A stretch of DNA of 64,000 nucleotides from an uncultured Planctomycetia bacterium (GCA_964373715.1 CAYJVR010000006.1:39781-103780); one strand, 5' to 3'; positions 31,014 to 53,142 are shown, counted from the first letter of the stretch. Program-made: numbers and translations. The notes: generated by a model from the sequence alone, not told the origin.

Positions 31014-31195
31014 AATAAGTTACAGCTTTCTTTTTGTACAGGATCCCATCCTCCAGGATGGCCCGGATGGCATCGAAGCAGTCGTCGGAGAATCAAAATT
31101 GTCCCGGAGAAAACACCCCTCTCTCGGAGAGCTTCAATAGCATAATTCGAACAGGTGGGATAAAACCGGCAAATGGGCGCCATAAATCCCCCCAA
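31010..31195 (-). CDS. yidD: Membrane protein insertion efficiency factor YidD
   Basis: CRFYPTCSNYAIEAL is the YidD signature. Confidence 0.85.
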   Translation of the reverse strand: MGGFMAPICRFYPTCSNYAIEALRERGVFSGTILILRRLLRCHPGHPGGWDPVQKESCNLL

Positions 31196-31239
31196 GGAAA
31201 CCGCTTGGTAGATCCGTATGGTTTCAACCAGGATTTCTA

Positions 31240-31587
31240 TTATAACTTTATTATTTTCAATAATTTAAGTATTTCCTCTTCGGTCCATTTGTAAGTCAGC
31301 TTTGCCGGAATTCGCACCACTATAACCAATAAATCCATCCCAGCCGGAAATAGCTCTTTTGTTCTCCGAAACACTTCCCGAACAAGCCGTTTCACTTTAT
31401 GACGAACAACCGAGGTTGTTGTAACACCTCGCCGGACAGTGCAGGAAAATCTCCTTTTTCCCATCCAGTTAGGTGAAATAATCAGGTTAAACCAATCGCC
31501 GCGGACAGTTTTGCCCTCTTTGAAGAGGTGTTGAAAGGCGACTTTTCCGGAGAGCCGTTCTGTTCGGCGGAACTTCGCTTCTGGCAT
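31240..31587 (-). CDS. rnpA: Ribonuclease P protein component
   Basis: Basic 115 aa protein with the RNR-like motif (KRLVREVFR), in the conserved rpmH-rnpA-yidD-yidC order. Confidence 0.85.
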   Translation of the reverse strand: MPEAKFRRTERLSGKVAFQHLFKEGKTVRGDWFNLIISPNWMGKRRFSCTVRRGVTTTSVVRHKVKRLVREVFRRTKELFPAGMDLLVIVVRIPAKLTYKWTEEEILKLLKIIKL

Positions 31588-31610
31588 CTTTCCGGCGGGT
31601 TCAGATCGGG

Positions 31611-31748
31611 TTAAGGTATAAGTGTATGGCGGCCTTTACGCCGTCGCCTGCGGAGCGTGTTCCGGCCCCCTTTTGTCGCCATACGGCTGCGGAATCCGTG
31701 CACACGTTTTCGCTTTATATTAGATTTATTCTTCAGGTGTTTCTTCAT
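31611..31748 (-). CDS. rpmH: 50S ribosomal protein L34 (not in the supplied ORF track)
   Basis: Reverse-complement translation gives [45 protein letters not shown], matching the bL34 consensus (...RxHGFRxRMxTxxGRxxLxRRRxKGR...). Confidence 0.9.
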
Positions 31749-31822
31749 GCGGCACCTCGCTGACTACAGGTTGAATGGATGACTTCGCCGAAACGGGTTA
31801 TTGTAGCAACCGCCTCAAACTC

Positions 31823-31852
31823 TTGTCAAACCTCATTCTCTCGTGCTATGAT
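31823..31852 (+). promoter_or_regulatory. Candidate sigma70 promoter for dnaA (TTGTCA-N18-TATGAT)
   Basis: Hexamers read in the rpmH-dnaA intergenic region, about 45 nt upstream of the dnaA ATG. Confidence 0.4.
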
Positions 31853-31894
31853 TCCAGCTTGTTCACATCAACCTAAGGAAAACCGTTTCTTCCC

Positions 31895-33274
31895 ATGGAG
31901 TCCCTGGATCTCAAGTTGTGGGATCGAGCACTTTCCCGCATTCAAAACGAATTACCGAGCCAAGCCTACGAAACTTGGTTTCAGCCGACGAGGGCCGTCT
32001 CGTCCACTTCGGACTCACTGGTTATCGAGGTCCCTAGCCCTTTTTTCCGGGACTGGCTGGCAAGCCATTATTCGGAGCTCATAGGCCGGATGCTTAGGGA
32101 TCTAGCAGAATCCAAAGTACGCGTTGAGTACATGGTGTCCCTTCAACAGCGCCAAGCTCCGGAGGAAGAACGGCTGCCTGCCATCTCGCCCCGCTTGCCG
32201 GCAGCCGCAACATACAGCAGCCCAGACAAAGCTGGGGTATCTCCTTCAGATATGGTTTTAAACCCTCGCTACACCTTTGAGGAATTCGTCGTTGGGCCGT
32301 CCAATCGATTCGCCCATGCAGCAGCTCTCGGAATCAGCGAATCTCCGGCGAGGGTATATAACCCTCTTTTTATTTATGGCGGCGTAGGTTTAGGGAAAAC
32401 GCATTTGATGCAGGCGATAGGGCATCGCCTGCGTGAGCGTTTTCACCAAGGGACGTGTATTTATATCTCGAGCGAACGGTTCACTAACCAGCTTATCACT
32501 GCCATTCAGAACAGATCCATGGGGGCATTCCGGGAACGGTTCCGGTCCGTTGATGTTTTAATGGTGGATGATATTCAATTTATCAGCGGAAAGGAGTCCA
32601 CCCAGGAGGCTTTCTTTCACACGTTCAACGCTCTTTATGACGCACACAAACAGATTGTTCTCTCCAGCGATCGCCTTCCGAAGGAATTGCGCGGCCTGGA
32701 GGAACGGTTGGTATCCCGTTTTGAGTGGGGATTGGTGACGGACATCCAACCTCCCGATTTAGAAACAAGGGTTGCCATACTCCGCAAAAAAGCGGAAGCT
32801 CAGGGACATCCAGTTCCGGATGAGGTGACTCTTTTTATCGCCGAGAAAATCTCTTCCAACATCCGTGAGCTGGAGGGGGCCTTGAATAGGGTCATTGCCC
32901 ACTCTGTTTTGATAAGCCGCGACATCTCTCTTACTATGGCGCAAGAGGTGCTGCGCGGTATGGTGGCTGAAACAGCGCGAAGAGTCACGCTAGACCGGAT
33001 ACAGAGGGTGGTGGCCTCCCATTTCAATTTAACCGTTACTGATCTTCGCGGAAAGCGCCGAACGAAAGAGATTTCTTTTGCCCGGCAAATAGCTATGAGC
33101 CTTGCCCGTGAGCTGACGGAGGCCTCTCTACCCTCTATTGGAGAAGCTTTTGGGGGGAGGGATCATGCCACCGTAATTTATGCTTGCTCCAAAATCGCAA
33201 ATGAAAGAAAATCAGGTGGTAAGATACGGCAGGTTTTAGATAGTCTCTTGTTAGAACTAAAGAAAGATTTGTGA
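31895..33274 (+). CDS. dnaA: Chromosomal replication initiator protein DnaA
   Basis: Domain I, the AAA+ domain (GGVGLGKTHL) and the DnaA signature HTH domain IV. Confidence 0.95.
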   Translation: MESLDLKLWDRALSRIQNELPSQAYETWFQPTRAVSSTSDSLVIEVPSPFFRDWLASHYSELIGRMLRDLAESKVRVEYMVSLQQRQAPEEERLPAISPRLPAAATYSSPDKAGVSPSDMVLNPRYTFEEFVVGPSNRFAHAAALGISESPARVYNPLFIYGGVGLGKTHLMQAIGHRLRERFHQGTCIYISSERFTNQLITAIQNRSMGAFRERFRSVDVLMVDDIQFISGKESTQEAFFHTFNALYDAHKQIVLSSDRLPKELRGLEERLVSRFEWGLVTDIQPPDLETRVAILRKKAEAQGHPVPDEVTLFIAEKISSNIRELEGALNRVIAHSVLISRDISLTMAQEVLRGMVAETARRVTLDRIQRVVASHFNLTVTDLRGKRRTKEISFARQIAMSLARELTEASLPSIGEAFGGRDHATVIYACSKIANERKSGGKIRQVLDSLLLELKKDL

Positions 33275-33463
33275 GTAATTTGTTAATAACTCTGTTTGAG
33301 TGGGTGTTTTGTTGAATCTGTTGGTGTTTTTGGTTGGTTATCAATAGGGGGTTATTGAATCTAAGTTGTTTATTTTTGGTGTGTTGTGTTGTTATTAACA
33401 GTTTTAACAGGTCTTATTATTGTTGTTACTAACTTAATAAACATAATGTAATAATAAGAGACA
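33275..33463. other. AT-rich dnaA-dnaN intergenic region (roughly 28% GC against a roughly 62% background), a candidate oriC/DNA-unwinding element with degenerate DnaA-box-like 9-mers
   Basis: The composition drop is visible directly. TTATCAATA and two copies of TTATTAACA (one on each strand) resemble TTATCCACA. TTGAATCT occurs twice. Its position between dnaA and dnaN is canonical for oriC. Confidence 0.5.
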
Positions 33464-34561
33464 ATGAAAACCATACTCTCGAGAGATGTTCTTCTAAAAG
33501 GCATCCAAAATATTTATCCGGTTATACCTAATAAAAGCACACTCCCCATTCTGTCGCATATTCTCCTGGAGGCAAAAAAAGACTCTCTATTTTTGGTTGG
33601 TACGGACTTGGAGATTGGAATTTCCTGTTCTATACTCGCAGAAGTGCAAGAAGAGGGGGCTATCGCTGTTCCGGCGAAAAGACTTTTTGAGTTAGTCAAA
33701 GAACTGCCAAACACATCCCTACATATTCATGCGAAGAAAAACCAGCAAATCACACTTGAATCAGAAAAAGGCCTATTTAAAATATCGGGGCTTCCAAAAG
33801 AGGAGTTTCCTCGCCTTCCACGCGTCGAGAATCAAGACGCCCTGGTGATTGACCAGAGGGTTTTAGAGGCCATGTTTTCACAAACAGCATTTGCCGCTTC
33901 ACACGATGAATCCAGATATATTCTCACAGGTATTCTTTTTGTTTCAAAGGGCGGGTGGTTGCGACTTGTTGCGACGGACGGCCGGCGCTTAGCGTCTGTT
34001 GCGCGCGAAGCGCGCACCCCAACAAAAACAGATCACCAGGTTGTGGTACCAGCCAAGGCAATACAGGAACTCCACCGTCTTTTAGGCGACGGGCCGTCAG
34101 TGAAGATCTCCATCAAAGAAAACCAGATAGCTTTTGATTTAGGAAACATACAGCTTATTTCTAGGTTGATTGAGGGGAAATTCCCGAATTACGAACAGGT
34201 TATCCCGGCAGAGTCCCCCCAAAAACTGGCCGTATCGAGAGAAAATCTGCTTTTGGTCACAAAACGGATCGGCCTTTGGACCACGATTGACTCACCCTCC
34301 ATACGTTTTGACCTGCGGCCCACCAACATTGTTGTTTCAAAGCAAACTCCGGAAGTTGGCGAAGCCCATGAAGAGATCCCGGCGACGTACAATGGGTCTG
34401 AATTTTCAATAGGGTTCAATCCCGCTTATTTGGTGGATGTTCTAAAAACGCTGCCGGACGAAAGTGTGGAAATGGAACTGCCAGGCCCGGATCGCCCCGG
34501 CGTCATTCGGACAAAGGACCATTACTTGTATATTGTTTTGCCGATGCAGTTAAATTCATAA
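33464..34561 (+). CDS. dnaN: DNA polymerase III beta sliding clamp
   Basis: Three-domain clamp, 365 aa, with full-length similarity. Confidence 0.95.
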   Translation: MKTILSRDVLLKGIQNIYPVIPNKSTLPILSHILLEAKKDSLFLVGTDLEIGISCSILAEVQEEGAIAVPAKRLFELVKELPNTSLHIHAKKNQQITLESEKGLFKISGLPKEEFPRLPRVENQDALVIDQRVLEAMFSQTAFAASHDESRYILTGILFVSKGGWLRLVATDGRRLASVAREARTPTKTDHQVVVPAKAIQELHRLLGDGPSVKISIKENQIAFDLGNIQLISRLIEGKFPNYEQVIPAESPQKLAVSRENLLLVTKRIGLWTTIDSPSIRFDLRPTNIVVSKQTPEVGEAHEEIPATYNGSEFSIGFNPAYLVDVLKTLPDESVEMELPGPDRPGVIRTKDHYLYIVLPMQLNS

Positions 34562-34582
34562 CGGTGGTGATGAGGATACGTG

Positions 34583-37382
<2,800 letters not shown>

Positions 37383-37397
37383 GGGGAGCTGACACCC

Positions 37398-39905
<2,508 letters not shown>

Positions 39906-39950
39906 TGTCGAAGGTCGCATTTCCATTGGGCTGTTTGAAATAGTCCACTC

Positions 39951-40025
39951 GTCCCCATCGTCTAGCCTGGCCTAGGACGCGGCCCTTTCAAGGCTGCAAC
40001 ACGGGTTCGAATCCCGTTGGGGACG
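39951..40025 (+). tRNA. tRNA-Glu (anticodon TTC), CCA not encoded
   Basis: GUCCCCA acceptor, anticodon loop CUUUCAA and T-arm GGUUCGAAUCCCG. Confidence 0.9.
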
Positions 40026-41373: not shown

Positions 41374-44300
41374 TTACGCGGCGGCGCCAAGAGCCTGAAG
41401 ATCATCGGAGAACTCTTCCAAACCGGAAGAGACAACTTCCGAAGGAACTCCAAGGACCTTAAGAATTTCTTGGACCAACAGGGTGAAGGACCAGCCCGTC
41501 GGATCGTGAGCGATAAAGCCCAGTTGAGCGCGACCGGCCATGCTTCCAAAAAGCGTAGCCTCTTCCGATTCCCCGTAGAAGTGCACCGCATCGCCCCGTT
41601 CAGCCACGCGCGTGATGGTGTCAGCAGGATCTCCGCGGTCAATGACAATCCGGTTATTCCAGACGGCGGCCAAAACCTGAAGCCCAGGGAATTTTTGTGC
41701 GAGACTCTGGCCGATAACAATGACCCATGTGGAGTCTGGCAGGCTGACAGACCGGAAACCGTCGGCTTGCTCCTGTGCCCTGCTGAAGAGGGCGACGGGT
41801 TCCTCCAGACCGGCCGATTTTTTGGCAACCAGGAAGAACCAGTTTCTGGGTAATGTTTGAAGACCCAGTTCAGCCATGGCCTCCGTCACGGCGTCGGACA
41901 AAATCTTCTGCCGGTCCGCAAGCGGGATATCGAACGGGAGCAGCTGATCCGCCACCACGGGTACTTGCACGAAATCCCTCAGGGCGGCGGTTGTAAGAGG
42001 GACGGTTCGCGTCTCTTCTTCCACAATGGCGAAACCTGCCTGCTCGATGAGGTCTCGGTATTCGCGCTGTGAGAGGGTGCGTAGGCGTTTTCGGCTAACC
42101 GGCGGAGCATCCGGAAAGGATTTTTCTAGAGAGACTTTGGCTTTGTCGGCGATTGCGAGATAAACCCGCATAGACTCGGGGGGGACTGATTCTTTCGTGA
42201 AAGTGGTGTTGAAACCGAAAAGCTGACCGGGAGCCAACTTGGCGGAAACCTCTTTGGCAAGCAAAGAGGAATCTCCCATCAGATGGATGGAATTGAACAG
42301 CACCACCGCATTCGGGTTTTCCGGCACAAGCTCTCTAAACTTTAGGGCATCACCCGCGCGGAATTCGACAATTCCGCGGAAAGAATCCGAAATTCGTCCT
42401 TGGGCTTGAATCGCCATACTTTCCGACAGATCAACGCCGATCACTTTCCCAGTCGATCCCAGAGCTCTCGCGACAAGAAAACTTCCACTGCCAGTTCCGC
42501 TGCCGAGGTCCACCACCGTTTGGCCATTGCCGAGCCCGTTCCTCGTCAAGAGATCGACCAAATGCTGGTTTGCCTGTCCGTATTCCGGATGAGCGGCAAA
42601 ACGGGCATAAGATGGCCCCGATTCCGGCTGGTCCCATACGGAACCTTGAGCGGGAAGACCTTCCTCCAGGCCGGCTCTGCCCTCGAAGACCTTACGGACA
42701 AGATCGAGCCTTTTGCGATCGCGGGCGATCGCGTAGATCTTCACGTTGCCCGGGCCGGTGATGACCGGCTGAAGGACCAACCCCGCCCGGCTCGCGGCTT
42801 TTTGAAACCGTTTCGGGTCAAGGTTCGGGGAGGCGAAGGCCCATTCTCCAAGGATCGAATTGTCCCAGGGCAAAAGGAACGCGATCCCGTCCGGGGCGAG
42901 AACCGTTTCCACCGATTGGATGAACCGATCCGCCATATCGAGATTAGCCGTGTTGGAAAAGACCACGTCGAACAGTTCCCCCTGAACGGGGGTAAAAAGA
43001 TCCCCTTCCAACAGAGTGACACGGTCCGACAGACCCAGCCGCGCAACCGCTTCGCGCCCTTTCACGAGGTAGGCACCCTGAATATCGGTTCCTACACCAC
43101 GGCCCGCTCCGGCAATATCCACCGCCGCCGAGACGACGTAACCGTAACCAGTTCCGATTTCCAACACCCGCTTCTGTTTGATGAAAGGGGCTGCCATATC
43201 AACGGCTGTGAGCATCAAATCAACGGTGGTTTCTGTGGAAAGAGGCGGGTTCTCGGAAAAATACCGGTCCCAGAAAACCTGCATCCGTTCCGGCAGAGGG
43301 ATACCGTTGACCGGCCATAGGACAGGATCGTTCAAGGAGGGTGGGAATAAACGGTTGTTGAGCGATCTGCCGAACGATTGTCCGAAAAGAACCCCGAGAA
43401 ACCCTTCGCCGGTGACGTGCGGTTTCGGGTTTCCTTTGAATGCGTGCCACGCAAGGCGCTCGCCGGTGGGCCGGGACGGGTGCCGGTACAGACCGGAGTC
43501 TTCAATGATCAGAATTTTGTTTTCCCACACCGCGGGGTCGTAGGGCTCCATATAGTTCTTTTGTGTTTCATAGGAGGAGAGGGGAGCGGTGATGTTGGCG
43601 TAATAGATCACCTCTGCGGAGGCCGCGAAAACCAGATAGCCGTTGACCGCCGCGGCCTGCGCAATCGCTTCAACCGCTTTACGCCTCCAGCCGTCCATCT
43701 GATGCCGGTGCTTGCTATTGATCTCGTGATAGCCGTCGGAGGGCTGAACTTCCTCGATCAGGAGGGCCAATTGGTCTTCCTCAGTTTTGTACCTGCTCAG
43801 CGCGATTTGCCCGAATGATCCGGCGTTCGGGTAGGCGGCTGATGGAGGCTGCTTGTTCAAAACGGCCAGCCACGGAAAACGGGCAAAGGTCTCTGGAGTC
43901 GGTCCGACTTGAAAAGTGTGAAAGGCCAAAAGATCCGAGCTTGCCGCCACCTCTTCGTATTTTTTGACGTGCTGAAGAGTCGCTTCCACCTGGCCCTCGA
44001 GAGAGCCGGTTCCAACCTGGAGACGGGTGTTGTTCAGCCAACCGGCGAGTTTTTTGGAAAGAGCGTTGTCGAACGGGACCGGTTTCAGCGTGAGAGGGAA
44101 AGGTTCTTCGAGACCGCCGCCGGAGGCCGGCCGGCGGACAGCCGGAGAGATGCTGAGGACTTCCATGGGGATGAATTTGCCCTTTCCGATCTCCACGGTG
44201 ACCAAGCCGTTTTCCGACAGATTGGCAACCTCTGCGAGAGCTTCTCTTATTTCCTGCGTAGTTAGGTCATCGCCCGATAATCCGTGCCTCGATACGGGAT

Positions 44301-47300
44301 CCGTTCCGTTGAAAAACTGGAGCCGTGGCGTTTCTCCGGCATGTTTCTTCTCTTGGATATAAAGCAGGATTTTCACCAGCGCATTGTCGAAAGACAGCTC
44401 CTCCATACCACCCTGAAACGCGCCGTGGATCGCCTCCCAGATCCAACCCCGCTCCTGGTCCGCGATCTGCAGTTTTTCTTCCGCCGAGCGCCTCATGAAT
44501 TCATCGAACAGGGATTCCTTCGTCGAAAAACCGGCCTGCTTCAAGGCCAGCACGAATTCCCAGCGGGCCAGTCCGACATCCGGAAGCGGAGGGACGGTGT
44601 TGTCTTCCAGCTGTTGAGTTCTGCGGATCCGCTGGATCATCAGGTTGATGCCTGTTGTTGCCGACAGCGCGGAGACGTATTTCCGCCATCTCTGCTCGAC
44701 TTCCTCCGTGCCGGCGGGACGGAGTTCGATGGCGGAGGATCCGGTCCGGACCACCTCGAAGAGGATATCCGGGGCGCCGTAGTTCCTCACAACCTCAACA
44801 ATGTCGGAGGCAACTTGACCAGCAGTCAGACCCATAGCCAATGAATAATCCACGCTGTTAACGAGAGCTCCCTTGGGGAAGTTAACTCGGATCGAGGTGG
44901 TTCCTTTAGCTTTCCAGGCAGGAATCTGTAGAGCCAACCATTCCTCGAGTTCCCCGATGCGTCCCTGATGAAGAACCTCCTCCGTTCCGGCGGAGAGATT
45001 CTTTACCCGAAACAGCCGGTCCGGCGCCCGAACGAAGCCGGAAGCTGATTGGTCCAGCAGTTGATGAAAACGTTCGGGAGTGGTAAGCATTATCTGGATC
45101 TGCTCCCCCTGCAGAGCGGCGGGCACCGCCTTCGGATCTTCTCCGAACCGTTTTCTCAGCGCTTCGACAAGAAGGTGGAGGTCATAGGTGCCTTGTAAAA
45201 GTCCGCGCACCAGTTCCCGGCCGGCCGGCGTGATCGAAATAGAGATTGGATCCGGCGTGTTGTAGACATAGGCGTATGGATTGAATTGATCGACCGGGAA
45301 GGAATAGCTGTCTGCCGGTTCCGGACCGACCCAAGGCCGCGCGTCGAACGCAGTGACCAGCCCCTCTCCCGAGACGAACAGGAGCAGCAGATCCCCCGCT
45401 TCGGAAGGGTTGAGCGAACCGGCCCGTTCGGTGAGCGGCGCAGGCAGTGCACGGTTCCCCAAGACATTTACGGGAAAGGTTGTTTCTTCTAAGCCGGTGG
45501 AGGGAGGGGCTTCTTGAGGATCGAGCCGACGGAAAGTGATCGCGATGTCTTGACTCCGCAAAACAATGTTGCTTGAAGCGATCTTGGAGCTCCACATCTC
45601 ATAGATTCCGACAGCATCAGTAGGGGCGACCGCCTCCAGCAGAGATAACTTCCATTGCTGCTTGGCGATTGCCCCCTCCAGTTTCTCTGCGTACGGCTGA
45701 ATGATTGCCTGAGCCGTATCGATCAGCCAGCGGTATTCCTTTTCGGGTATCAACTTGGAGATAGGGACAAAACCTCTAGGTGCCAGGGCGTCTCCCCGTT
45801 CTGCCAGGGCGTCCGATAAGCCCTGGATTTGGCCATCCTCGGACAGGACGAGTTTAAAAAGCAAACCGTTCCGCAACACCCTCTGAGGAAGTCCATGCTG
45901 CCGATAATAGTCGAGCCCATGAATCACGTCATAATAGACATGAAGATGGATCCACCAAGCTTCTCCAGCGCCCCTGACCAGCGCCCAGTGGGGATTAAGA
46001 ATGGTTCCGGTTGTCGACCGCCGGAATCCCGTGTCAAAATCGACAAGACTTCCAAAACCCCACCATTCGTTTAGACCATCCAAGAGCTGTTTTTGAACAA
46101 CAGTTCTGATTTGATCGACATAACGGCCGGAATTTAAAGCTTCCTCCTGTCCGGCGGATCCAGGGTTCTCGATCGGGGGTGACAGCACGGCGGTTTGGCG
46201 TGTTTCGTCAATAACCAGCTGCAGCCAGCCCCCCTGCTGCAGCGACATGGCTTGCGACCAAATTTTCTGCTCGGGGAAATGAGGACCTTTCAGTCGGGAG
46301 GGTTTTCCTTTCGGTTGCATGAACACAACCTCCGTCACTTTCGGAGAAGTGCCACTGGTTGCCTGAAGGATTGCCTGAACCGCCTCGTTGATGTAAATAT
46401 TTTCTGGAAGCGTTTTTTGGGAAGCAGTTGCCAGAAGTTGATTCAGCATCCGGATTGAAAGTTTATGGGCCGATTTTCGCGCCTCCCGGAAAGCAGGTGC
46501 CAGCTCCTTGCCCTGCCGCATGACCGGGTAAAAGGTAATTGTCCGATCTGGATGGATGAGGAAGAAGCTCCGGCTTTCCAAAGGAAGAGGCCACCAGGCG
46601 CCTTGCTCGTCAGAGCGGGCCAGAATCCGGTACTTTTCAATTCGGATTTCTATGGTTTTCAAAGCTGCTTCTGGATTATCCGGGTCGGCATACCCGATTC
46701 GGGCAGGTTCCCCCCGCTCTGAAAGAATCGTCAGCAGTTTCCGAGCTTCGGCAATCCTCAACCAGAAAGGAGGCTGTGTTTCTGCAGACAGAGGAACCCG
46801 CATACGCTCTTCTTTCCCGGCGGTAGGGCCGGGTTCTGGTGTGAGGCCGGAGATGCTTTGTGTTTGTTGCTTGGAGGCGTTGAACCACTGGAGTTTGGGT
46901 TCCAGCGTGCGCGGTCCTATGCTGAAACCGACGTAGCCTTTCGCCATCAGCGCGGCGGCATTTTCCGTTTTGACTCCGCCGGCGCTCCCGAACACGCGGA
47001 TGTGGGACAACGCCGCGTCCCCCGCCATCCGTTCAAGAAGAGCCGCCGTTTCCCCTGCGGTTATCCCGGGTCCTACGGCAGGCTCCACCTCGATTCCCTG
47101 TGCTCCGGTTAGTTGTGCGGTTTCCACATCGGCCCAATCCCGAACCTTTGCAATGACGAGAATTTGGTTATTAACGCCGGTCTTTGCGGTTTCCAGAACC
47201 ACCTCCCCAATAACAGAAACCGGCGCGCTGATGATCAGGTTGCGTCCTTGGGCGGAGGAAACCACCGAAGGGACTTGCGAGGCCTGATAAATGGCAACGC

Positions 47301-49422
47301 CGACCACGGCATTTTGGTTCTTGGTTCGCAGCTGGCTGAGGGCCTGAAGGCTGAGCGCATCATCAATCCCCCGGATGTCAATCTTAGGAATAAGACCGCT
47401 TTCCAGCACCTGTTGAGCGAACTGAGAGATAAAGTCCGGACTGGCGTTTGCCGGGTAGTCTGCCTGATCCCTCCAATTGATAAAGCCGAATCCGCGATAA
47501 TTTTTGAGTTCTTCTGCCAGAGATTTCGCCGTTCGGGCCGAGGTTTCCTCCAGGCCGGCGGTCGTCTCATCCTTGGCGGCAGGCGGCGGCTGAGGCGGTG
47601 TCCAGCGGTAGGTTTTCAGGAAGTGATATTTTTCCATCGTCTCGGCGGCGGTAACCTTCGGGTCCCAGCTTCCGCCGAATTGTTTTTCGGCTTTCTTGAG
47701 AAGGTTGTTCACAACGCCGCTTTCAAATGCGGTGCTGTAAGTCGGAAAGTGGTCGGCATTTCGGCCGACGGAAACTGTCAAAACCCCGACCGCCACTTGC
47801 AGGCGGACGATCACCTCATCCATCGGGGAGCCTAGCGAGAAGACCGCGGCCGACGCGTCCGGGTGGGGCAGTTCATGGAAGAGGTTCCGCGTGTCCTTCG
47901 CAAACCGGTCTCGGATATGGTCGGCAAGCCAGGTTTTGACCTGTTCGGCCGAGGATTCCTCCAGCCCGGCGGAAACGCCGGACCTTTTTCCCCAGGATGA
48001 AATGAAATCAGGCCGGTGTTTCAGGAATCCGTCGATGGTTCGACGAACTATCTGTTCTACAACCTCAGCAGGGGCGTCCGGTGGAACCTCCCGAACGAAG
48101 GATTCGAATCGGCAGCAAAAGGTGGGGAAGAATGCTTGCAGCACCGCATCTCTTGATCCGGCCGGCTCCGCCGCGTAAGCGAGAAGGAACCGATACACCA
48201 GTTGAGCCCAAAGCTCTTCCGACAAGTGAAGTTGTTCCGGCGAGGCACCATGAAGCTTCTCGAGTTCTTGAAAGAGCGCTTCCCCCACAATCTTTTTGAT
48301 CGCCGCTCGGTCTCCAGCAAAATACTGCCGGAACATTCGGTCGTAAGTCATTGCCAGCTCATCCGGCTTCCGGAGGGTGCTGATGTTCGGAGCGGGGATT
48401 CCTTCGCCGTCCTGCGGAATCTTCAAACGAACCCAAGAATCGCTGTTTGCTAAAACTGATTCAAACAACACCCGAAAGATTTGGATGTCGTTCTTGCGAA
48501 GACCCTCGTCCTGATCCATGCGGTCTGAGGTGTGCAGCAATTGGCCCAGGGGGGGCTCGTAAAACCGCACCTTGTTGAGCAGCAAATTCTGGGTCAAAAC
48601 CAGGTCTATGCCATACCCGGAGTAAACCTCGTGTCTCTCCAAGTTTTGCAGATAGGTGCTTAAGCCGTGGATCACGTCCGCCGTCATGGCCCGTACCCCG
48701 CTGAGCGGGTGCCGAGGCGCCTGGCCGTAAATGGCGGAGAGCAATGGGTGGATAAGATGATTGGTCACTTCCGCGTCGTGAGCTAACCGCTCAACGTTCG
48801 GAATCGCGCAACTGTTAGAACCGGCGGAAAGGACGGGGTCCAGAGTGATTTTCATCCATTCGGGGGTTATATTTGTGATGTCCGCATCAAAGTAAGCCAT
48901 GTGGGCGTTCTTATCAGAGGAGACATCGATAAAGGCTCGTACGCTCCACCCTTTTCCCCGCAAGCCGGTCGGCTTCTGAAAACTACTGTAAGCTGTTTTT
49001 GGCGAGCCGTTTGGGAGAACAGCGCTGATTTCGACGGGGGAATCGGCCTCCCCTATGGCAAGAACAAGGAATCGGGTTTTGGGGTAGAACCGTGTAAGCC
49101 CTTGCTCAATTTGCTCCAAAAGGTTCCCCACCGTTTGAGTCAATTCGCGGGAAAACGGTATGCCGATTACCACGTCTGCCGGATAGGTGCGGAGGGCCTC
49201 CCGCGTTTTTTCCAGAAAATCCTGATATTGGTGCTCCGCCGTTCGGGCTGGGGGTTCCTCCAGACCGGTGGAGAGTTTAAGAAGAGTCGTGGCCAGCTCG
49301 CCGGCGATAGCCCCCTCCGGCGCGGCTTCAGGCCGAAGAGCGCATGCCGACGGAGGCAAGGCAAGGCTGACCGATAGAAGAGCGGATAGAATTCTTCCGT
49401 ATAAAGGAAAGGGATTTTTCAT
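41374..49422 (-). CDS. Giant multi-module protein (2682 aa from MKNPFPL, or 2706 aa from the track start). After an N-terminal signal/anchor it carries a GT-A glycosyltransferase-like module, a TIM-barrel-like module, several unknown modules and two class-I SAM-dependent methyltransferase modules. Ten AG[L/T]EE motifs punctuate it.
   Basis: A single uninterrupted 8.1 kb ORF. MTase motif I occurs twice (VLEIGTGYGYV, and VVDLGSGTGSGSFLV with GVDLSESM). The GT-A-like region shows DVVIGIPFSRE ... YFDADITN. The TIM-barrel-like region shows HIRVFGSAGGVKTENAAALMAKGYVGFSIG. GLEE/GTEE motifs sit at aa 77, 510, 647, 1334, 1502, 1595, 1794, 2275, 2562 and 2691. Confidence 0.85.
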   Translation of the reverse strand: MKNPFPLYGRILSALLSVSLALPPSACALRPEAAPEGAIAGELATTLLKLSTGLEEPPARTAEHQYQDFLEKTREALRTYPADVVIGIPFSRELTQTVGNLLEQIEQGLTRFYPKTRFLVLAIGEADSPVEISAVLPNGSPKTAYSSFQKPTGLRGKGWSVRAFIDVSSDKNAHMAYFDADITNITPEWMKITLDPVLSAGSNSCAIPNVERLAHDAEVTNHLIHPLLSAIYGQAPRHPLSGVRAMTADVIHGLSTYLQNLERHEVYSGYGIDLVLTQNLLLNKVRFYEPPLGQLLHTSDRMDQDEGLRKNDIQIFRVLFESVLANSDSWVRLKIPQDGEGIPAPNISTLRKPDELAMTYDRMFRQYFAGDRAAIKKIVGEALFQELEKLHGASPEQLHLSEELWAQLVYRFLLAYAAEPAGSRDAVLQAFFPTFCCRFESFVREVPPDAPAEVVEQIVRRTIDGFLKHRPDFISSWGKRSGVSAGLEESSAEQVKTWLADHIRDRFAKDTRNLFHELPHPDASAAVFSLGSPMDEVIVRLQVAVGVLTVSVGRNADHFPTYSTAFESGVVNNLLKKAEKQFGGSWDPKVTAAETMEKYHFLKTYRWTPPQPPPAAKDETTAGLEETSARTAKSLAEELKNYRGFGFINWRDQADYPANASPDFISQFAQQVLESGLIPKIDIRGIDDALSLQALSQLRTKNQNAVVGVAIYQASQVPSVVSSAQGRNLIISAPVSVIGEVVLETAKTGVNNQILVIAKVRDWADVETAQLTGAQGIEVEPAVGPGITAGETAALLERMAGDAALSHIRVFGSAGGVKTENAAALMAKGYVGFSIGPRTLEPKLQWFNASKQQTQSISGLTPEPGPTAGKEERMRVPLSAETQPPFWLRIAEARKLLTILSERGEPARIGYADPDNPEAALKTIEIRIEKYRILARSDEQGAWWPLPLESRSFFLIHPDRTITFYPVMRQGKELAPAFREARKSAHKLSIRMLNQLLATASQKTLPENIYINEAVQAILQATSGTSPKVTEVVFMQPKGKPSRLKGPHFPEQKIWSQAMSLQQGGWLQLVIDETRQTAVLSPPIENPGSAGQEEALNSGRYVDQIRTVVQKQLLDGLNEWWGFGSLVDFDTGFRRSTTGTILNPHWALVRGAGEAWWIHLHVYYDVIHGLDYYRQHGLPQRVLRNGLLFKLVLSEDGQIQGLSDALAERGDALAPRGFVPISKLIPEKEYRWLIDTAQAIIQPYAEKLEGAIAKQQWKLSLLEAVAPTDAVGIYEMWSSKIASSNIVLRSQDIAITFRRLDPQEAPPSTGLEETTFPVNVLGNRALPAPLTERAGSLNPSEAGDLLLLFVSGEGLVTAFDARPWVGPEPADSYSFPVDQFNPYAYVYNTPDPISISITPAGRELVRGLLQGTYDLHLLVEALRKRFGEDPKAVPAALQGEQIQIMLTTPERFHQLLDQSASGFVRAPDRLFRVKNLSAGTEEVLHQGRIGELEEWLALQIPAWKAKGTTSIRVNFPKGALVNSVDYSLAMGLTAGQVASDIVEVVRNYGAPDILFEVVRTGSSAIELRPAGTEEVEQRWRKYVSALSATTGINLMIQRIRRTQQLEDNTVPPLPDVGLARWEFVLALKQAGFSTKESLFDEFMRRSAEEKLQIADQERGWIWEAIHGAFQGGMEELSFDNALVKILLYIQEKKHAGETPRLQFFNGTDPVSRHGLSGDDLTTQEIREALAEVANLSENGLVTVEIGKGKFIPMEVLSISPAVRRPASGGGLEEPFPLTLKPVPFDNALSKKLAGWLNNTRLQVGTGSLEGQVEATLQHVKKYEEVAASSDLLAFHTFQVGPTPETFARFPWLAVLNKQPPSAAYPNAGSFGQIALSRYKTEEDQLALLIEEVQPSDGYHEINSKHRHQMDGWRRKAVEAIAQAAAVNGYLVFAASAEVIYYANITAPLSSYETQKNYMEPYDPAVWENKILIIEDSGLYRHPSRPTGERLAWHAFKGNPKPHVTGEGFLGVLFGQSFGRSLNNRLFPPSLNDPVLWPVNGIPLPERMQVFWDRYFSENPPLSTETTVDLMLTAVDMAAPFIKQKRVLEIGTGYGYVVSAAVDIAGAGRGVGTDIQGAYLVKGREAVARLGLSDRVTLLEGDLFTPVQGELFDVVFSNTANLDMADRFIQSVETVLAPDGIAFLLPWDNSILGEWAFASPNLDPKRFQKAASRAGLVLQPVITGPGNVKIYAIARDRKRLDLVRKVFEGRAGLEEGLPAQGSVWDQPESGPSYARFAAHPEYGQANQHLVDLLTRNGLGNGQTVVDLGSGTGSGSFLVARALGSTGKVIGVDLSESMAIQAQGRISDSFRGIVEFRAGDALKFRELVPENPNAVVLFNSIHLMGDSSLLAKEVSAKLAPGQLFGFNTTFTKESVPPESMRVYLAIADKAKVSLEKSFPDAPPVSRKRLRTLSQREYRDLIEQAGFAIVEEETRTVPLTTAALRDFVQVPVVADQLLPFDIPLADRQKILSDAVTEAMAELGLQTLPRNWFFLVAKKSAGLEEPVALFSRAQEQADGFRSVSLPDSTWVIVIGQSLAQKFPGLQVLAAVWNNRIVIDRGDPADTITRVAERGDAVHFYGESEEATLFGSMAGRAQLGFIAHDPTGWSFTLLVQEILKVLGVPSEVVSSGLEEFSDDLQALGAAA

Positions 49423-49522
49423 AGCCTTAATAGAATATAGATCAAGTATATAGTCAAAGGAAGGAAAAATGCAGAAATAACAAAGATTAATCATCCATTA
49501 ACACAAGTAACGGGAGAGAACA

Positions 49523-49539
49523 GGCTATTCTTAATAGCC
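49523..49539. promoter_or_regulatory. Perfect palindrome GGCTATT-ctt-AATAGCC in the divergent promoter region between the two giant genes (candidate operator)
   Basis: Read directly. It lies in an AT-rich 237 bp intergenic region between divergent starts. Confidence 0.4.
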
Positions 49540-49600
49540 CTATTATCGAAAAAACGAAGGAAACCGCACATGTTAGAAATCAACAAATTTAAATCTACTC

Positions 49601-49630
49601 TTGACAGACCTCTCTTTTGTCGTGTAGACT
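49601..49630 (+). promoter_or_regulatory. Candidate sigma70 promoter for the 49660 gene (TTGACA-N18-TAGACT)
   Basis: Hexamers read about 30 nt upstream of the ATG. Confidence 0.4.
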
Positions 49631-49659
49631 TCTAATATCCCCGAGAAAACCTCGAGATT

Positions 49660-52600
49660 ATGGCGGTGAAATTGAAAAGAAAAAAAGAGGTTTTCTTGAT
49701 TCCCCGTTTGTTGGCAGCGTTTCTGATTGCCTGCCAGGTCGTTTCAGGTACACCTACTTTCTCACGCGCTGAAGTACCGAATCCCTCTGCCGCGACTCTG
49801 CGAGCCACCATCGAAGGTTCCACCGAACCGAATCTCCGGCATCTTTTCGGGCTTCCGTCTGCCTCCGTCGCGCCGTCTGCTGGTTTGGAGGAATCGCTCG
49901 GGTTTACCCGAAAGATCTTTCTTTATTTGACGGCGGCCGGGTTGCTTTGGGCGGGGGCCAACGGTCTTACAAACATCCCTGTAGGGGCTATCGCCCAGGA
50001 TAAAAAGCCGGCCGTGGAATTCGTTCTTCCGAAAGAGGTGGGTAAACCGTGGGATTCCCTGTTTAAGACAGATCCCAAGAGCAAAGCGATCCCTTTCCGC
50101 GCTTCGGACACCTTTTTCCAGGTTGGGTTGGTCCGGGCGGATGATCCGACGCGGGGTTTTTACTGGGATTTTTGGGCGGTTGAGCCGGATGGGACATCCA
50201 TAGGCAGAGTTCAAACCGCCCAGGATGGTGGTTGGCGGATCGTGAATCCGGGGACGAACGACACGATCGGTGCCCTCCATTTTGGCCTCGCGAATAATTT
50301 TACGATTTATGACCGGTACGGCAAACCAGTTTCCCAAAACCTGAGCGTTCTTGCTCCCGGGGAGAAAGCCCCTCCAGCCAAAGACCCGATACCTATTTAT
50401 ATTGTCCTTGCGCGGGGCGGAGACGGCAGTCCCACCAAAGTTCAGCCCGATCCGATCGGATACATCCAGGTGAGAGAACGGCTTCTGCTTAACCAGGACA
50501 AAAAGCCTATCGCCTTGATCCGACCGGCGACCTTAATGACAAAAGGCTTCCAGGAAAACAGCCACCCTTTTTATCTCGACGGCGTTTCTCTGACGTATGA
50601 TCTTTATACAGCGGATCCGTCTCCCGGGCTCCAGAAAAAGCTGCAGGAGAGGCTTGACGCCATGAAACCGGATTCGTTGCCGGGGAAAATAATGAAAGCC
50701 CAACTGGCTGTCCGCTTGATACAGGTGGATCTTCTTCTTGGCGAGAAAGGGAGCGGAAAATTCGCCAAGGCGGGGATATTACCGGAAGAGGCGAAAAAAG
50801 CCGCCGATGCCCTGGCGGTGGAGCGCCTACCGGTCCTTAACGATTTAGGCAGGAAGGAGAGTAGACAGCTCATTTGGCAGGCAATCGAGAATGCCGATCC
50901 TCTATATCGTCTTTACTCCGAGGGGGTTCGGCTTGCCGGCTACCGGGACGACCGGGAGGTTTTGGAGCATATCTTGCTGACTCAAAAAGTCATTTGGGCA
51001 GGTTGGGGGGCCCCGCACGTGAAGGCAGACGCCGCCACACCGCTTCAAGACTGGATGCGGGATATCCTGGTGGACAGTTTGCGTTTTCAGGCGATACGCA
51101 CCCCGGAAGAGGCGATCCAGTTGACATCGGAGGTGCTGTTGGCTCCGGGCGCGGAATTGGTCCGTCAACGGAAACAGGATGTTTGGCTGAAGGATCCTTG
51201 GCTGAACAGAACAGATCGCGTTCTTATCCTGCGGGCCAAGAGACAGTTTGGGGCGTTTGACAAAGCGGTTCATCAGGCGGCCGCGCTTCACAGGGCCGGC
51301 TACCCGGTCAGCTTCTGGAGCCTGTTGGTGCATAAGCAGATGGATGATAACACTAAAACGATTGTGCAGGAGACCCTCGTGGTTGCGGGGGATAAAGAGG
51401 GCGGGAAAAAGATCACCATTTTGGGAGCCGACAGCGTGCTGGGTGATTTGGGCGGGAAAAAACTTGAGAAGGGGCTTTACCAATTTGAATCGATAGACTC
51501 GCTGAAGAACCTGCTCGAAGAGCGCGGGGAGTACCGCATGACGCTGGAAAACGCGGCGGCGGCGAAGACAACCATGCCGGCGTGGGCCAATGAGCTTCGG
51601 AAACCGATCGACTATAATCACAAGAGTTGGGATGCGGCAGGACAGCCTCACCGGGATCCCCTGCTCAACTGGATCTTTTTCGACCATAACGTGGATCCGT
51701 GGTTTTCGTTTACCAGGGAGAGTTTTGATAATTCTCGAGAGTTGGCCCGGGCGTTTGCCAAAGGGATGGAGAAGCATAAGATCGCTCTGTACATACGGCA
51801 GAAGAAAGACGGCGGAAAAACAGAGGATGTCGCCGTTGAAGATTTGGCCAAAAGAGAAAAGGCGCTGATTCTCACAAAGCACGAAGCGGTCCTGGGCAAG
51901 GCCTTCCAAACGCTGCCGGGTAAAATGTTCAGCGGGACGCGGAAATTCACGCTTCAGGAGGAAGCTCCGCTAAAAAAGGTTCTGCAGGCTGAAATCCGTG
52001 GCGACAAAGTGGTCCTTGTTGAAAGAGACTCTGTCGAAGGGGGCCGGGCGGACAGCCGGGAGGTCTCTTTATTTTTTGCCGGGTATGTTGAGGCGGTCCA
52101 CGAGATGATGCACCGGTGGGCGTTTGCCCGCGGGGATGCGTTAAGCGGAACATTTAAGATCGGAGAATGGACCGGCAACATGGTAGATCCATTTAATGAC
52201 ATCTCCTGGAAACAGGGTGAAGACAAACGATGGGTCCGGCGCAGCGACAAGATCAACTTGATTGATTTTGGCTGGGAGTACGGGGCGACCAACCAGGATG
52301 AGGATATCGCGGTCACAGGGCAAAGGTATGTCGTCCAGGCCCCTGAGGTTCGCCGGATAGCGAGAGGTGAGCTGAGAAACGGGAACCTGGTTCCGGCGGT
52401 TAAGTACCTCCACATGAAATACATCGCTTTCCTCGACACCGACGGCAAGAGTATGGAATACGATTTGGCCGGAGGGGAGATGCCGTTCGCGATGGATGAA
52501 TTTGAGAAAGGGGTGAAGGCCCTGAAGAGACCCCTGACCGATGAGCAGCAGAGGCTTTTGGATTTAGCCAGGAGGATACACCAGTTGTCACAACATATGA

Positions 52601-53142
52601 AAGAGAATAAGAAGATCAGCCAGGCCGCGCCGGGCAGCACGGACCTTCCGGCGGTTGTAGAGTTTCAGAGGGACTTGTCTGCGGCGGATCGGTTGGCCAT
52701 CTTTGCTGAGGCGGCGCGGGGCCCCGGTGTCGTCGTTGTTCAGGCGAGCACCCTTGCCCGCCGCGCCGGCTTGGAAGATTTTATGCTGGCGCTTCCGGCC
52801 GACTTAAAGAGCAGGATTATTCTTTTCGGCAAAGAGAGCGCTGCCGCTAAAAGGATTGCGGCCCGCGCTGGGATCACCCTTGTGGACAGCGATGAACTCA
52901 CCGATCTGGCAGTCGCGCTTTCGAGTTTGTGGCAGGCGGATCAGGTTGGCTTTATCGGCGATGCCGATAAAGCGCGTCTCTTGGCGGCGATGCTTCAGAG
53001 AATGAACATCAGCTTGTTTTCAATGGATCCGGACGTGGCCCTCGGGAAGATCCTGCTTTCCCTCGGGATTCCCGGCACCGTTCTTGACCAAGTGGATATT
53101 GGCGGGCTTGAAGAAGAGCTCGGCCGCCGGCGCTTCGCGTAA
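49660..53142 (+). CDS. Large (1160 aa) signal-peptide/lipobox protein with an HExxH (HEMMH) zinc-metallopeptidase-like motif. It carries the same AGLEE motif after its N-terminal hydrophobic segment (aa 73-78) and at its extreme C-terminus (aa 1148-1152), plus AGLED at aa 1036-1040.
   Basis: Uninterrupted ORF. LIAC lipobox. HEMMH lies at nt 52099..52113. No other family is recognised. Confidence 0.75.
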   Translation: MAVKLKRKKEVFLIPRLLAAFLIACQVVSGTPTFSRAEVPNPSAATLRATIEGSTEPNLRHLFGLPSASVAPSAGLEESLGFTRKIFLYLTAAGLLWAGANGLTNIPVGAIAQDKKPAVEFVLPKEVGKPWDSLFKTDPKSKAIPFRASDTFFQVGLVRADDPTRGFYWDFWAVEPDGTSIGRVQTAQDGGWRIVNPGTNDTIGALHFGLANNFTIYDRYGKPVSQNLSVLAPGEKAPPAKDPIPIYIVLARGGDGSPTKVQPDPIGYIQVRERLLLNQDKKPIALIRPATLMTKGFQENSHPFYLDGVSLTYDLYTADPSPGLQKKLQERLDAMKPDSLPGKIMKAQLAVRLIQVDLLLGEKGSGKFAKAGILPEEAKKAADALAVERLPVLNDLGRKESRQLIWQAIENADPLYRLYSEGVRLAGYRDDREVLEHILLTQKVIWAGWGAPHVKADAATPLQDWMRDILVDSLRFQAIRTPEEAIQLTSEVLLAPGAELVRQRKQDVWLKDPWLNRTDRVLILRAKRQFGAFDKAVHQAAALHRAGYPVSFWSLLVHKQMDDNTKTIVQETLVVAGDKEGGKKITILGADSVLGDLGGKKLEKGLYQFESIDSLKNLLEERGEYRMTLENAAAAKTTMPAWANELRKPIDYNHKSWDAAGQPHRDPLLNWIFFDHNVDPWFSFTRESFDNSRELARAFAKGMEKHKIALYIRQKKDGGKTEDVAVEDLAKREKALILTKHEAVLGKAFQTLPGKMFSGTRKFTLQEEAPLKKVLQAEIRGDKVVLVERDSVEGGRADSREVSLFFAGYVEAVHEMMHRWAFARGDALSGTFKIGEWTGNMVDPFNDISWKQGEDKRWVRRSDKINLIDFGWEYGATNQDEDIAVTGQRYVVQAPEVRRIARGELRNGNLVPAVKYLHMKYIAFLDTDGKSMEYDLAGGEMPFAMDEFEKGVKALKRPLTDEQQRLLDLARRIHQLSQHMKENKKISQAAPGSTDLPAVVEFQRDLSAADRLAIFAEAARGPGVVVVQASTLARRAGLEDFMLALPADLKSRIILFGKESAAAKRIAARAGITLVDSDELTDLAVALSSLWQADQVGFIGDADKARLLAAMLQRMNISLFSMDPDVALGKILLSLGIPGTVLDQVDIGGLEEELGRRRFA

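Follow-up and report, generated by a model that had tools for sequence, protein, structure and literature searches.

Introduction

In MARTX toxins and viral polyproteins, a protease that lies in or beside the chain cuts it at short consensus sites, and proteins of the plastid lumen are characterized by bipartite targeting, in which an initial cleavage uncovers a further signal. Euglenophytes and dinoflagellates possess plastid-targeted polyproteins (RBCS, LHC, EF-Ts), which are imported as chains whose units are then released by proteolysis (PMC6242988), and in the cyanobactin precursor PatE the protease PatA cuts after GLEAS (PMC4282754). Here we analyzed a stretch of 64,000 nucleotides from an uncultured Planctomycetia bacterium (GCA_964373715.1, CAYJVR010000006.1:39781-103780; the window), in which the open reading frame (ORF) of a 1160-residue protein with an HExxH motif, termed the HExxH protein, diverges from that of a 2706-residue megaprotein, both bearing the pentapeptide AGLEE or variants of it. 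The HExxH ORF encodes a pre-pro-enzyme of a large, previously undescribed modular protein family, for whose recurring AGxEE pentapeptide proteolytic processing appears the best reading.

The family resembles the plastid polyproteins in having one N-terminal presequence, complete units and one short conserved linker. Those chains are, however, eukaryotic, consist of copies of the same protein and use a decapeptide linker unrelated to AGLEE, whereas the present family combines different enzymes in a bacterium without a known inner compartment and carries a dedicated C-terminal domain. Like PatE, it has a leader and then cassettes that are each preceded by a short recognition sequence, and the G-L-E-x-S of PatE resembles G-L-E-E-S, the commonest form of the motif in the family, a likeness to be taken as a lead only. 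Cyanobactin cores are peptides of 6–8 residues whereas the cargo here comprises whole enzymes, PatA is a subtilisin-type serine protease, and no PatA-like gene was seen in the ~81 kb examined. With MARTX and viral polyproteins the family shares long chains of autonomous modules, the repertoire of which changes by recombination between strains. In contrast to these, Pfam detected neither a cysteine protease domain nor RTX repeats in the members scanned, the cargo is metabolic and regulatory, and the genes are chromosomal and lie beside oriC. None of these systems is homologous to the family.

A modular protein family with a common plan

A HMMER search of 1.84 billion cluster representatives yielded 138 relatives, and the counts of CTD and HExxH core given below were obtained with a profile of the C-terminal domain (CTD; alignment A1) and a profile of the HExxH core (alignment A2) over 141 proteins. 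The family comprises at least 92 clusters at 50% identity, with proteins of up to 4351 residues, and six NCBI assemblies of metagenome-assembled genomes contain it. Its members follow one plan: a Sec-like leader that contains (A/T)LR leads up to the pentapeptide [AST]G[LAMV]EE, after which come cargo modules and, last, a HAD-like CTD ending in -AA. Complete members exhibit a textbook Sec-type signal, a conserved L-R and, 3–40 residues later, the first [AST]G[LAMV]EE; the pattern small-x-small-[LMFIQ]-R was found in 42 of 72 leaders. The pentapeptide that ends the leader also delimits the cargo modules, which in the HExxH ORF amount to one unit of ~930 residues. The megaprotein has a leader of the same type (…PPSACALRPEAAPEG…STGLEE), two S-adenosylmethionine (SAM)-methyltransferase modules and a homologous CTD. 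It thus belongs to the same family with the same plan, which explains why the HExxH protein shares its motif. The earlier note on this DNA had proposed that the two genes form one system, and the common leader grammar, delimiter and homologous CTD agree with this; the motif is not private to the pair, the pentapeptide being a generic module delimiter across ~90 clusters.

The modules are whole proteins or multi-domain blocks, as exemplified by SHMT at residues 707–1073 of P0078 within a module spanning 647–1136 (P and L numbers denote proteins and loci, respectively). Pfam matches to enzymes in the cargo comprised SAM-methyltransferases, PfkB kinase, Glu/Leu dehydrogenase, PALP (a pyridoxal-phosphate enzyme), SHMT, ROK, and 2-hydroxyacid and mannitol dehydrogenases; further matches were to an XRE-type helix-turn-helix (HTH), FHA, WD40 and Metallophos. 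No Pfam or NCBIfam model scored above threshold for the leader, the CTD or the zincin in the members scanned. Neither of two alignments, A3 for the HExxH part and A5 for the CTD, retrieved a relative from the GTDB species representatives, word-index homologue searches returned near-identical copies only and, with the diverse alignment A2 as query, nothing, whilst a metagenome scan gave two loci only and a viral scan none. A literature search on the AGLEE/GLEE motif and on bacterial polyproteins found nothing relevant, a preprint on giant genes of Omnitrophota being without the motif. As to genomic setting, the gene of the 2431-residue polyprotein P0048 (L015:8311-20553, L016) lies between mcsA/mcsB (UVR, protein arginine kinase) and clpC, inside a protein-quality-control operon.

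Constraint on the pentapeptide

The megaprotein contains 13 [AGST]G[LKQTM]EE motifs, of which 8 are GLEE. In 81.5 kb (74 non-overlapping ORFs, 26,079 residues), 13 + 2 occurrences fell in the pair and two elsewhere, one in YidC (AAGLEEA; 29475–31013, − strand) and one, TGAEE, just past the window; these two are probably due to chance. The earlier statement that no other protein of the window has the motif is therefore nearly right, save for the single AAGLEEA of YidC.

Across 75 related proteins, GLEE was observed 269 times versus 4.5 expected from composition, and fourteen permuted or near-miss control motifs (GELE, LGEE, GLED, GVEE and others) occurred 0–14 times each. GLED was found 4 times versus the 269 of GLEE, showing that the second Glu is almost never an Asp. 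The conserved context is limited to P-P-[AST]-A-G-x-E-E, and the third motif residue tends to be uniform within one protein, such as AGAEE in P0006 and AGQEE in P0007. The synonymous positions of the motif vary, indicating that the constraint acts on the peptide. Due to this variation, a DNA recombination site or target-site duplication was rejected as its origin; a translated Shine–Dalgarno sequence of fused cistrons or an internal start was likewise discarded, because the motif is restricted to one frame and is not followed by Met or a start codon.

Export signals inside the chains

Canonical twin-arginine (Tat) signals start 5–13 residues after the motif, also deep inside chains. A Tat-type start was present at every motif-bearing unit of the lethal-factor-like (LF-like) type with an intact N-terminus, with inner instances at residue 217 of P0015, residue 393 of P0016 and residue 1259 of P0021. 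P0107 exhibits three successive inner Tat signals (828 TTRRTFLRR, 1141 STRRDFLRA, 1507 RTRREFLRR), and in P0095, which carries an unrelated module, LTRRDFLKG follows the motif. In the HExxH protein, the Tat-type signal begins at residue 82 behind a 78-residue leader, so that it would be N-terminal only if the chain were cut at the motif. For signal peptides situated hundreds of residues into a chain, prior cutting at these positions is the simplest explanation.

Comparison between relatives revealed exchange of modules. In L006 (GCA_023248015.1, L006:3-8203), the HExxH protein is 88% identical and the megaprotein is rebuilt with respect to window positions 41374–49494: its residues ~104–643 are missing, and the second methyltransferase (residues 2273–2564) is encoded further downstream by a gene in its own right, complete with leader and SGLEE. 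The breakpoints between L006 and the window are at AGLEE 645, 2273 and 2560. L010 (GCA_023818545.1; L010:1363-13411) has three family genes within ~12 kb, set among the housekeeping genes that surround the pair in the window. They encode a protein of 1313 residues, in which a leader like that of the megaprotein is combined with a NAGPA domain, as well as P0022 and an orthologue of the HExxH protein; an ankyrin-repeat gene is located between these genes. P0022 has an HExxH-type leader and CTD around a module related to megaprotein residues 1150–1319, and other modules reappear in different proteins and positions. The orthologue, a full ORF of 956 residues with 42% identity to the HExxH protein, has the layout leader-ETLRGTVEG-...-SAGLEE-PGSFSRRRFLGFG, with a canonical SRRRFLGFG. 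The modules are autonomous, which fits cutting at the motif.

A putative processing scheme

We propose that the AGxEE pentapeptide is an endoproteolytic processing site. A cut at A74–E78 of the HExxH protein would remove the leader and expose the Tat-type signal, whereupon the folded zinc enzyme would be exported to act as an extracytoplasmic endopeptidase. The megaprotein would in turn string together whole enzymes, which cuts at these sites would set free. As an account of the whole, a modular pre-pro-enzyme that is cut at the motif and contains a Tat-type-exported zincin seems to us, with some reserve, the probable one. Whether the family as such is best read as bacterial polyproteins is evenly balanced in our judgement. 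The fullest version falls slightly short of such a balance: here AGxEE would be the cut site of a cellular, non-viral bacterial polyprotein system, in which whole enzymes, regulators and Tat-exported hydrolases are made as one chain with a single leader, site-specific proteolysis sets them free and unmasks inner export signals, modules are exchanged at the cut sites, and the leader and the CTD with its free -AA serve as handles for a processing machinery that perhaps includes zincin modules beside the CTD.

The C-terminal domain

The CTD of ~150 residues is always found at the extreme C-terminus, in proteins of 81–4351 residues with unrelated upstream content. It was detected in 92 of the 141 proteins, ending at most 5 residues from the C-terminus in 91 of these 92 (A1 profile), and 88 of the 92 contain the motif. 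The consensus end reads ...LG.P..VLDQINA[AS]GLEE.LAR.RAA, the terminal Ala being >90% conserved; this conserved free -AA end resembles ssrA-type and tail-specific-protease signals. The CTD of the megaprotein is homologous, more divergent, and ends in …ALGAAA.

The confidently predicted model of the CTD (predicted local distance difference test, pLDDT, 94.6) shows the Rossmannoid core of the HAD superfamily, and the Legionella effectors Lem4 and Ceg4 are among the best structural matches to it. From the HAD superfamily the CTD differs by the missing DxD, its invariably extreme C-terminal position and its conserved free -AA end. The nucleophile motif DxD is replaced by V-V-V-V-Q-A-S in the HExxH protein and by V-I-E-A in the family consensus, and no conserved catalytic-type residues were found in the domain, only G100, L108 and A160 being near-invariant. 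With the DxD motif absent, an active HAD enzyme was rejected and the CTD is not to be classed as one. Within the CTD, as many as four helices begin with GLEE. The positions at residues 1036 and 1148 of the HExxH protein are such helix starts, which makes the C-terminal "bracket" an element of the folded domain; the motif had been described as bracketing the protein, but its GGLEE and AGLED occupy conserved helix starts within the folded CTD rather than linkers. P0016 and P0021, two polyproteins with an LF-like unit, lack the HAD-like end and share another C-terminal domain (...HALFV), so that end domains of more than one kind occur in the family.

Layout of the HExxH protein

The following features were delineated in the HExxH protein, all on the + strand.

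49660–53142, +: HExxH ORF, ATG start, 1160 residues plus stop
49660–49749, +: leader, residues 1–30, basic n-region and hydrophobic h-region, including the lipobox-like L22-I23-A24-C25
49795–49803, +: T46-L47-R48, the family-wide (A/T)LR leader element (leader consensus)
49879–49893, +: A74-G-L-E-E78 (within SAGLEE 73–78), first delimiter and end of the leader/pro segment
49903–49995, +: Tat-type signal/anchor, residues 82–112, with F-T-R-K-I-F-L-Y-L, an 18-residue G/A-rich h-region and A110-I-A112/Q
50017–51696, +: region without assigned fold, residues 120–679, conserved only in full-length homologues
51697–52674, +: ATLF-like gluzincin domain, residues 680–1005
52099–52113, +: H814-E-M-M-H818, predicted zinc-binding/catalytic motif, invariant and on a model helix
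52300–52305, +: E881-D882, invariant, on model helix 200–213, E881 being a candidate third zinc ligand
52687–53139, +: C-terminal HAD-like alpha/beta domain (CTD), residues 1010–1160, ending ...RRRFA
52765–52779, +: A1036-G-L-E-D1040, CTD GLEE position 1, helix start
53101–53115, +: G1148-G-L-E-E1152, CTD GLEE position 4, start of the last helix, followed by 8 residues

The positions assigned earlier to HEMMH (814–818), SAGLEE (73–78), AGLED (1036–1040) and GGLEE (1148–1152) were all recovered in the translation. Relatives split the protein into three parts, at residues ~120–700, ~740–990 and ~1010–1160. The first of these is confined to full-length homologues (P0008-P0013, P0015-19, P0021), residues 100–700 have no detectable relative in the PDB or Pfam, and Pfam and NCBIfam gave no match anywhere in the protein. 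Between the HExxH unit and the CTD there is no canonical motif.

The Tat-type motif of the HExxH protein contains RK (FTRKIFL), weaker than the RR of its orthologues (SRRRFLGFG in L010, TRRTVL in P0010, NRRTLLK in P0016), and is followed by a weakly hydrophobic h-region at residues 86–103 (IFLYLTAAGLLWAGANGL) preceding the A110-I-A112/Q. The earlier note had called the protein lipobox-containing. L22-I-A-C25 does fit the pattern and the Cys is kept in the 88% relative, but conservation goes no further: the leader Cys is absent in P0010 and P0022, and in the L010 orthologue a Cys stands in the non-lipobox context G-Q-T-V-C. As a family feature, the lipobox was rejected on account of these three.

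The zincin core

In 25 diverse homologues (alignment A2), H814, E815, H818, W820, E881 and D882 were invariant. The AlphaFold model of the HExxH core (pLDDT 90.8) places HExxH in helix 130–146 and E881, 63 residues past H818, on helix 200–213, a geometry suggesting E881 as the third zinc ligand. Thus the zincin fold and a putative third ligand, both looked for in the earlier note, are supported by a confident model with both elements on helices and invariant. In the profile alignment, HExxH and a '..F..Y....ED.A' segment match 4l7a and 9urd, the latter being a SusD-associated zinc metallohydrolase. Known structures of the ATLF-like group were tabulated with the HExxH core model as follows, identity of the core to group members being 11–14%.

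1yqy, anthrax lethal factor, 8.4
6fpc, Pro-Pro endopeptidase PPEP-2, 8.2
3dl1, MtfA, 8.0
9g0j, PPEP-3, 8.0
4l7a, Peptidase_Mx1, 7.1

Lethal factor and the PPEPs (M34), MtfA (M90) and Bacteroides Peptidase_Mx1, or 'substrate import-associated zinc metallohydrolase' (4l7a, 9urd), exhibit the same HExxH helix with a downstream Glu on a second helix, and several members of this group are secreted and site-specific. The HExxH protein differs from them by having its HExxH domain behind an unassigned region of ~570 residues, a Tat-type signal and an AGLEE leader, and by the HAD-like domain that follows. A Foldseek search with the zincin core gave no significant match and no curated model scored above threshold, with Pfam M90/Mx1 reaching sub-threshold scores in 6–8 of the 25 homologues; for these reasons we describe the zincin as a new, distant family of the lethal-factor-like gluzincin fold. 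Profile and model together indicate that the HExxH core is a distant anthrax-lethal-factor/PPEP/MtfA/Mx1-like gluzincin, and it is plausible that the gene product is an exported zinc endopeptidase of this new family. Many proteins that lack the motif, from other organisms of frequently low GC content, likewise contain the HExxH core.

Genomic setting of the gene pair

The divergent partner and the intervening spacer contain the following features.

41374–49494, −: megaprotein ORF, 2706 residues, divergent from the HExxH gene
41374–49422, −: megaprotein from the NCBI start M25 (nt 49422), 2682 residues
49601–49630, +: sigma-70-like promoter match TTGACA-18-TAGACT in the divergent spacer, a consensus match only

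NCBI annotation was available for the identical contig (GCA_947085675.1, CAMTXI010000005.1). It starts the HExxH gene at TTG 49693, 12 codons downstream, yielding 1148 residues, with AAGAGG 5 nt upstream, whereas the Logan/ENA gene calls give 1160 residues from ATG 49660. The megaprotein ORF has 24 N-terminal codons beyond the NCBI start; using that start together with ATG 49660, the divergent spacer is 237 bp.

The pair is located ~10 kb from dnaA-dnaN-gyrB-gyrA in housekeeping surroundings. Window positions 29475–40000 hold yidC, dnaA, dnaN, gyrB and gyrA and represent the chromosomal replication origin region; the cumulative GC skew has its minimum at ~30–32 kb, and GC content dips to 47–51%. 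A dedicated protease gene beside the pair was rejected, as the Pfam-matched ORFs of the window and nearly all genes of the extension (all but three, over both 10-kb sides) are housekeeping.

Alternative explanations

Several observations weigh against the processing scheme proposed above. All family members were recruited by similarity to the HExxH protein, which biases the counts, and processing at the motif is argued from sequence throughout. It is contradictory for cytoplasm-type cargo and inner Tat signals to stand behind a Sec-type leader, except if export takes place after loss of the leader or leads through two successive membranes. The export route of the HExxH protein itself appears uncertain, given RK in place of RR and the possible lipobox. 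The GLEE of the CTD helix starts is as compatible with a role in structure or docking as with cutting. Finally, in the window as well as in L006 (88%) and L010 (42%), the HExxH gene has multi-module genes with the motif beside it, as would befit the HExxH protein being the cognate protease itself.

The docking argument can be taken further, with AGxEE as an uncut element that keeps multi-enzyme chains together as beads or gives them multivalent contacts to a partner, for example a chaperone, a receptor or a scaffold. Cutting at all of the up to four helix starts of the well-modelled CTD would destroy the domain, only ~5–6 residues are conserved, as is typical of a binding motif, no protease was found nearby in the window, and some modules, such as one of P0130 with Glu/Leu dehydrogenase and PALP, contain two enzymes without a delimiter. 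On the other hand, the inner Tat signals of P0107 (three), P0015, P0016 and P0021 could hardly function unless an N-terminus were freed, modules alternate between fusion and separate genes over short evolutionary distance, and the Pro-rich, small-residue stretch before the motif is as seen at processing sites, leaving this explanation unlikely, if still the object of serious consideration. A much smaller chance falls to secreted MARTX-like effector chains that leave through Sec and are cut only after delivery to another cell, with the LF-like unit as a toxin-type effector. Textbook Sec leaders, the lethal-factor-like fold, Lem4 and Ceg4 as neighbours of the CTD, strain-level module shuffling as in MARTX and the repeat domains (Ank next door in L010, WD40, TPR, FHA) would all fit; the cargo, however, is mostly housekeeping-type enzymes and bacterial HTH regulators, inner Tat signals would be senseless after Sec export, Pfam found no autoprocessing cysteine protease or translocation repeats in the members scanned, and the genes lie among core housekeeping genes next to oriC. 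Least probable of all, and in our view hardly tenable, is that the motif is primarily a Shine–Dalgarno-like GGAGG at the RNA level, pausing ribosomes at module borders or being the relic or site of internal initiation, with the conservation of the peptide as a secondary effect. GGAGG was present in 34 of 55 motif instances (drawn from window 41374–53142, L001, L002, L003 and L006) versus 14.8 expected from their own codon usage (P < 5e-6), a bias which may reflect ribosome pausing at module borders, and NNG codons are mostly used for the variable third residue. Yet 38% of the instances keep the peptide without GGAGG (CTT GAA GAA, TTA GAA GAA), and Asp is rare at the last position even though GGAGGAY would serve equally, so that any RNA role is at most secondary; moreover, neither start codons nor Met are enriched after the motif, and GGAGGA occurs in one reading frame only.

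The proposal of the earlier note, that the HExxH protein is the cognate AGLEE-specific protease cutting the megaprotein and itself, has the attraction that its fold class includes highly site-specific endopeptidases (lethal factor, Pro-Pro endopeptidases), and a single protease in each genome would agree with ~10 motif-bearing LF-like clusters against ~90 with the CTD. The distributions of zincin and motif do not match, however, at the level of protein clusters: 39 of the 50 clusters with an LF-like zincin core lack the motif, 88 of the 92 CTD proteins lack an LF-like zincin, and both features coincide in 4 of 141 proteins, which lends no support to the idea that sharing the motif marks the protein as specific for it. 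The closest homologues (37–42% identity) are mixed, P0008 and P0010 being motif-bearing whereas P0009 and P0011-13 have neither motif nor CTD and exhibit ordinary signal peptides; around P0009 lie DUF1501 and HEAT-repeat genes, with no family gene within 10 kb. No LF-like gene was detected in the flanking DNA examined of the polyproteins in L001, L002, L014 and L015/16, and the LF-like gene of L003 lies downstream of YebC, glycosyltransferase and epimerase genes, the 8.4 kb examined upstream of it containing no gene with the motif. The Tat-type signal would moreover place the unit outside the cytoplasm, whereas cutting must precede Tat export of the inner modules, and the C-terminal "bracket" is an internal CTD position. 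As for synteny, the pairing with motif-bearing genes indeed recurs in the 88% and 42% relatives, but within one lineage only; the entire DUF4202-Tag-TP_methylase-LpxA-PyrRBC-LolA neighbourhood is common to the window, L006 and L010, and this adjacency may therefore be ordinary synteny. Zincin-like modules do recur beside the CTD (HEAAH in P0006, P0007 and P0061; HEDxH in P0035 and P0124), and a TPR and Peptidase_MA_2 gene (L001:8829-9878) lies immediately upstream of the gene of the 3205-residue P0007, both of which count in favour of the proposal. We consider the cognate-protease hypothesis weakened and improbable, the HExxH protein being a candidate for the processing step that is not yet supported; its HExxH unit looks like exported cargo, one among many. 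Of the first reading of the locus, the zincin fold and the single family thus stand, and the role as cognate protease is not supported.

No homology links the LF-like unit to the other HExxH modules (HEAAH, HEDxH, HEAHH), and among the latter it is limited to P0035 with P0124 and to the two modules of P0107; their Pfam matches, to DUF6782, M60 and DUF2268, are sub-threshold. Five of them are located directly before the CTD (P0006 residue 1411, P0007 residue 2909, P0061 residue 242, P0035 residue 23, P0124 residue 289), and those of P0107 (residues 977 and 1290) follow inner Tat signals. Further upstream of P0007, L001 contains a type IV pilus/secretin cluster.

Implications

The larger result is the motif-delimited, leader- and CTD-bearing modular protein family itself, and if the pentapeptide is not a cut site, this family remains a substantial one that Pfam and NCBIfam do not cover in the members scanned. 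If it is a cut site, ordinary enzymes would be made as long precursor chains and then separated, a strategy known from viruses and a few algal plastid proteins and not from bacterial chromosomes. This would explain 'giant' ORFs composed of unrelated enzymes, and the gene and protein counts of these lineages would need revision. Export signals would be unmasked by proteolysis, and whole enzymes would be shuffled between genes at a five-residue joint.

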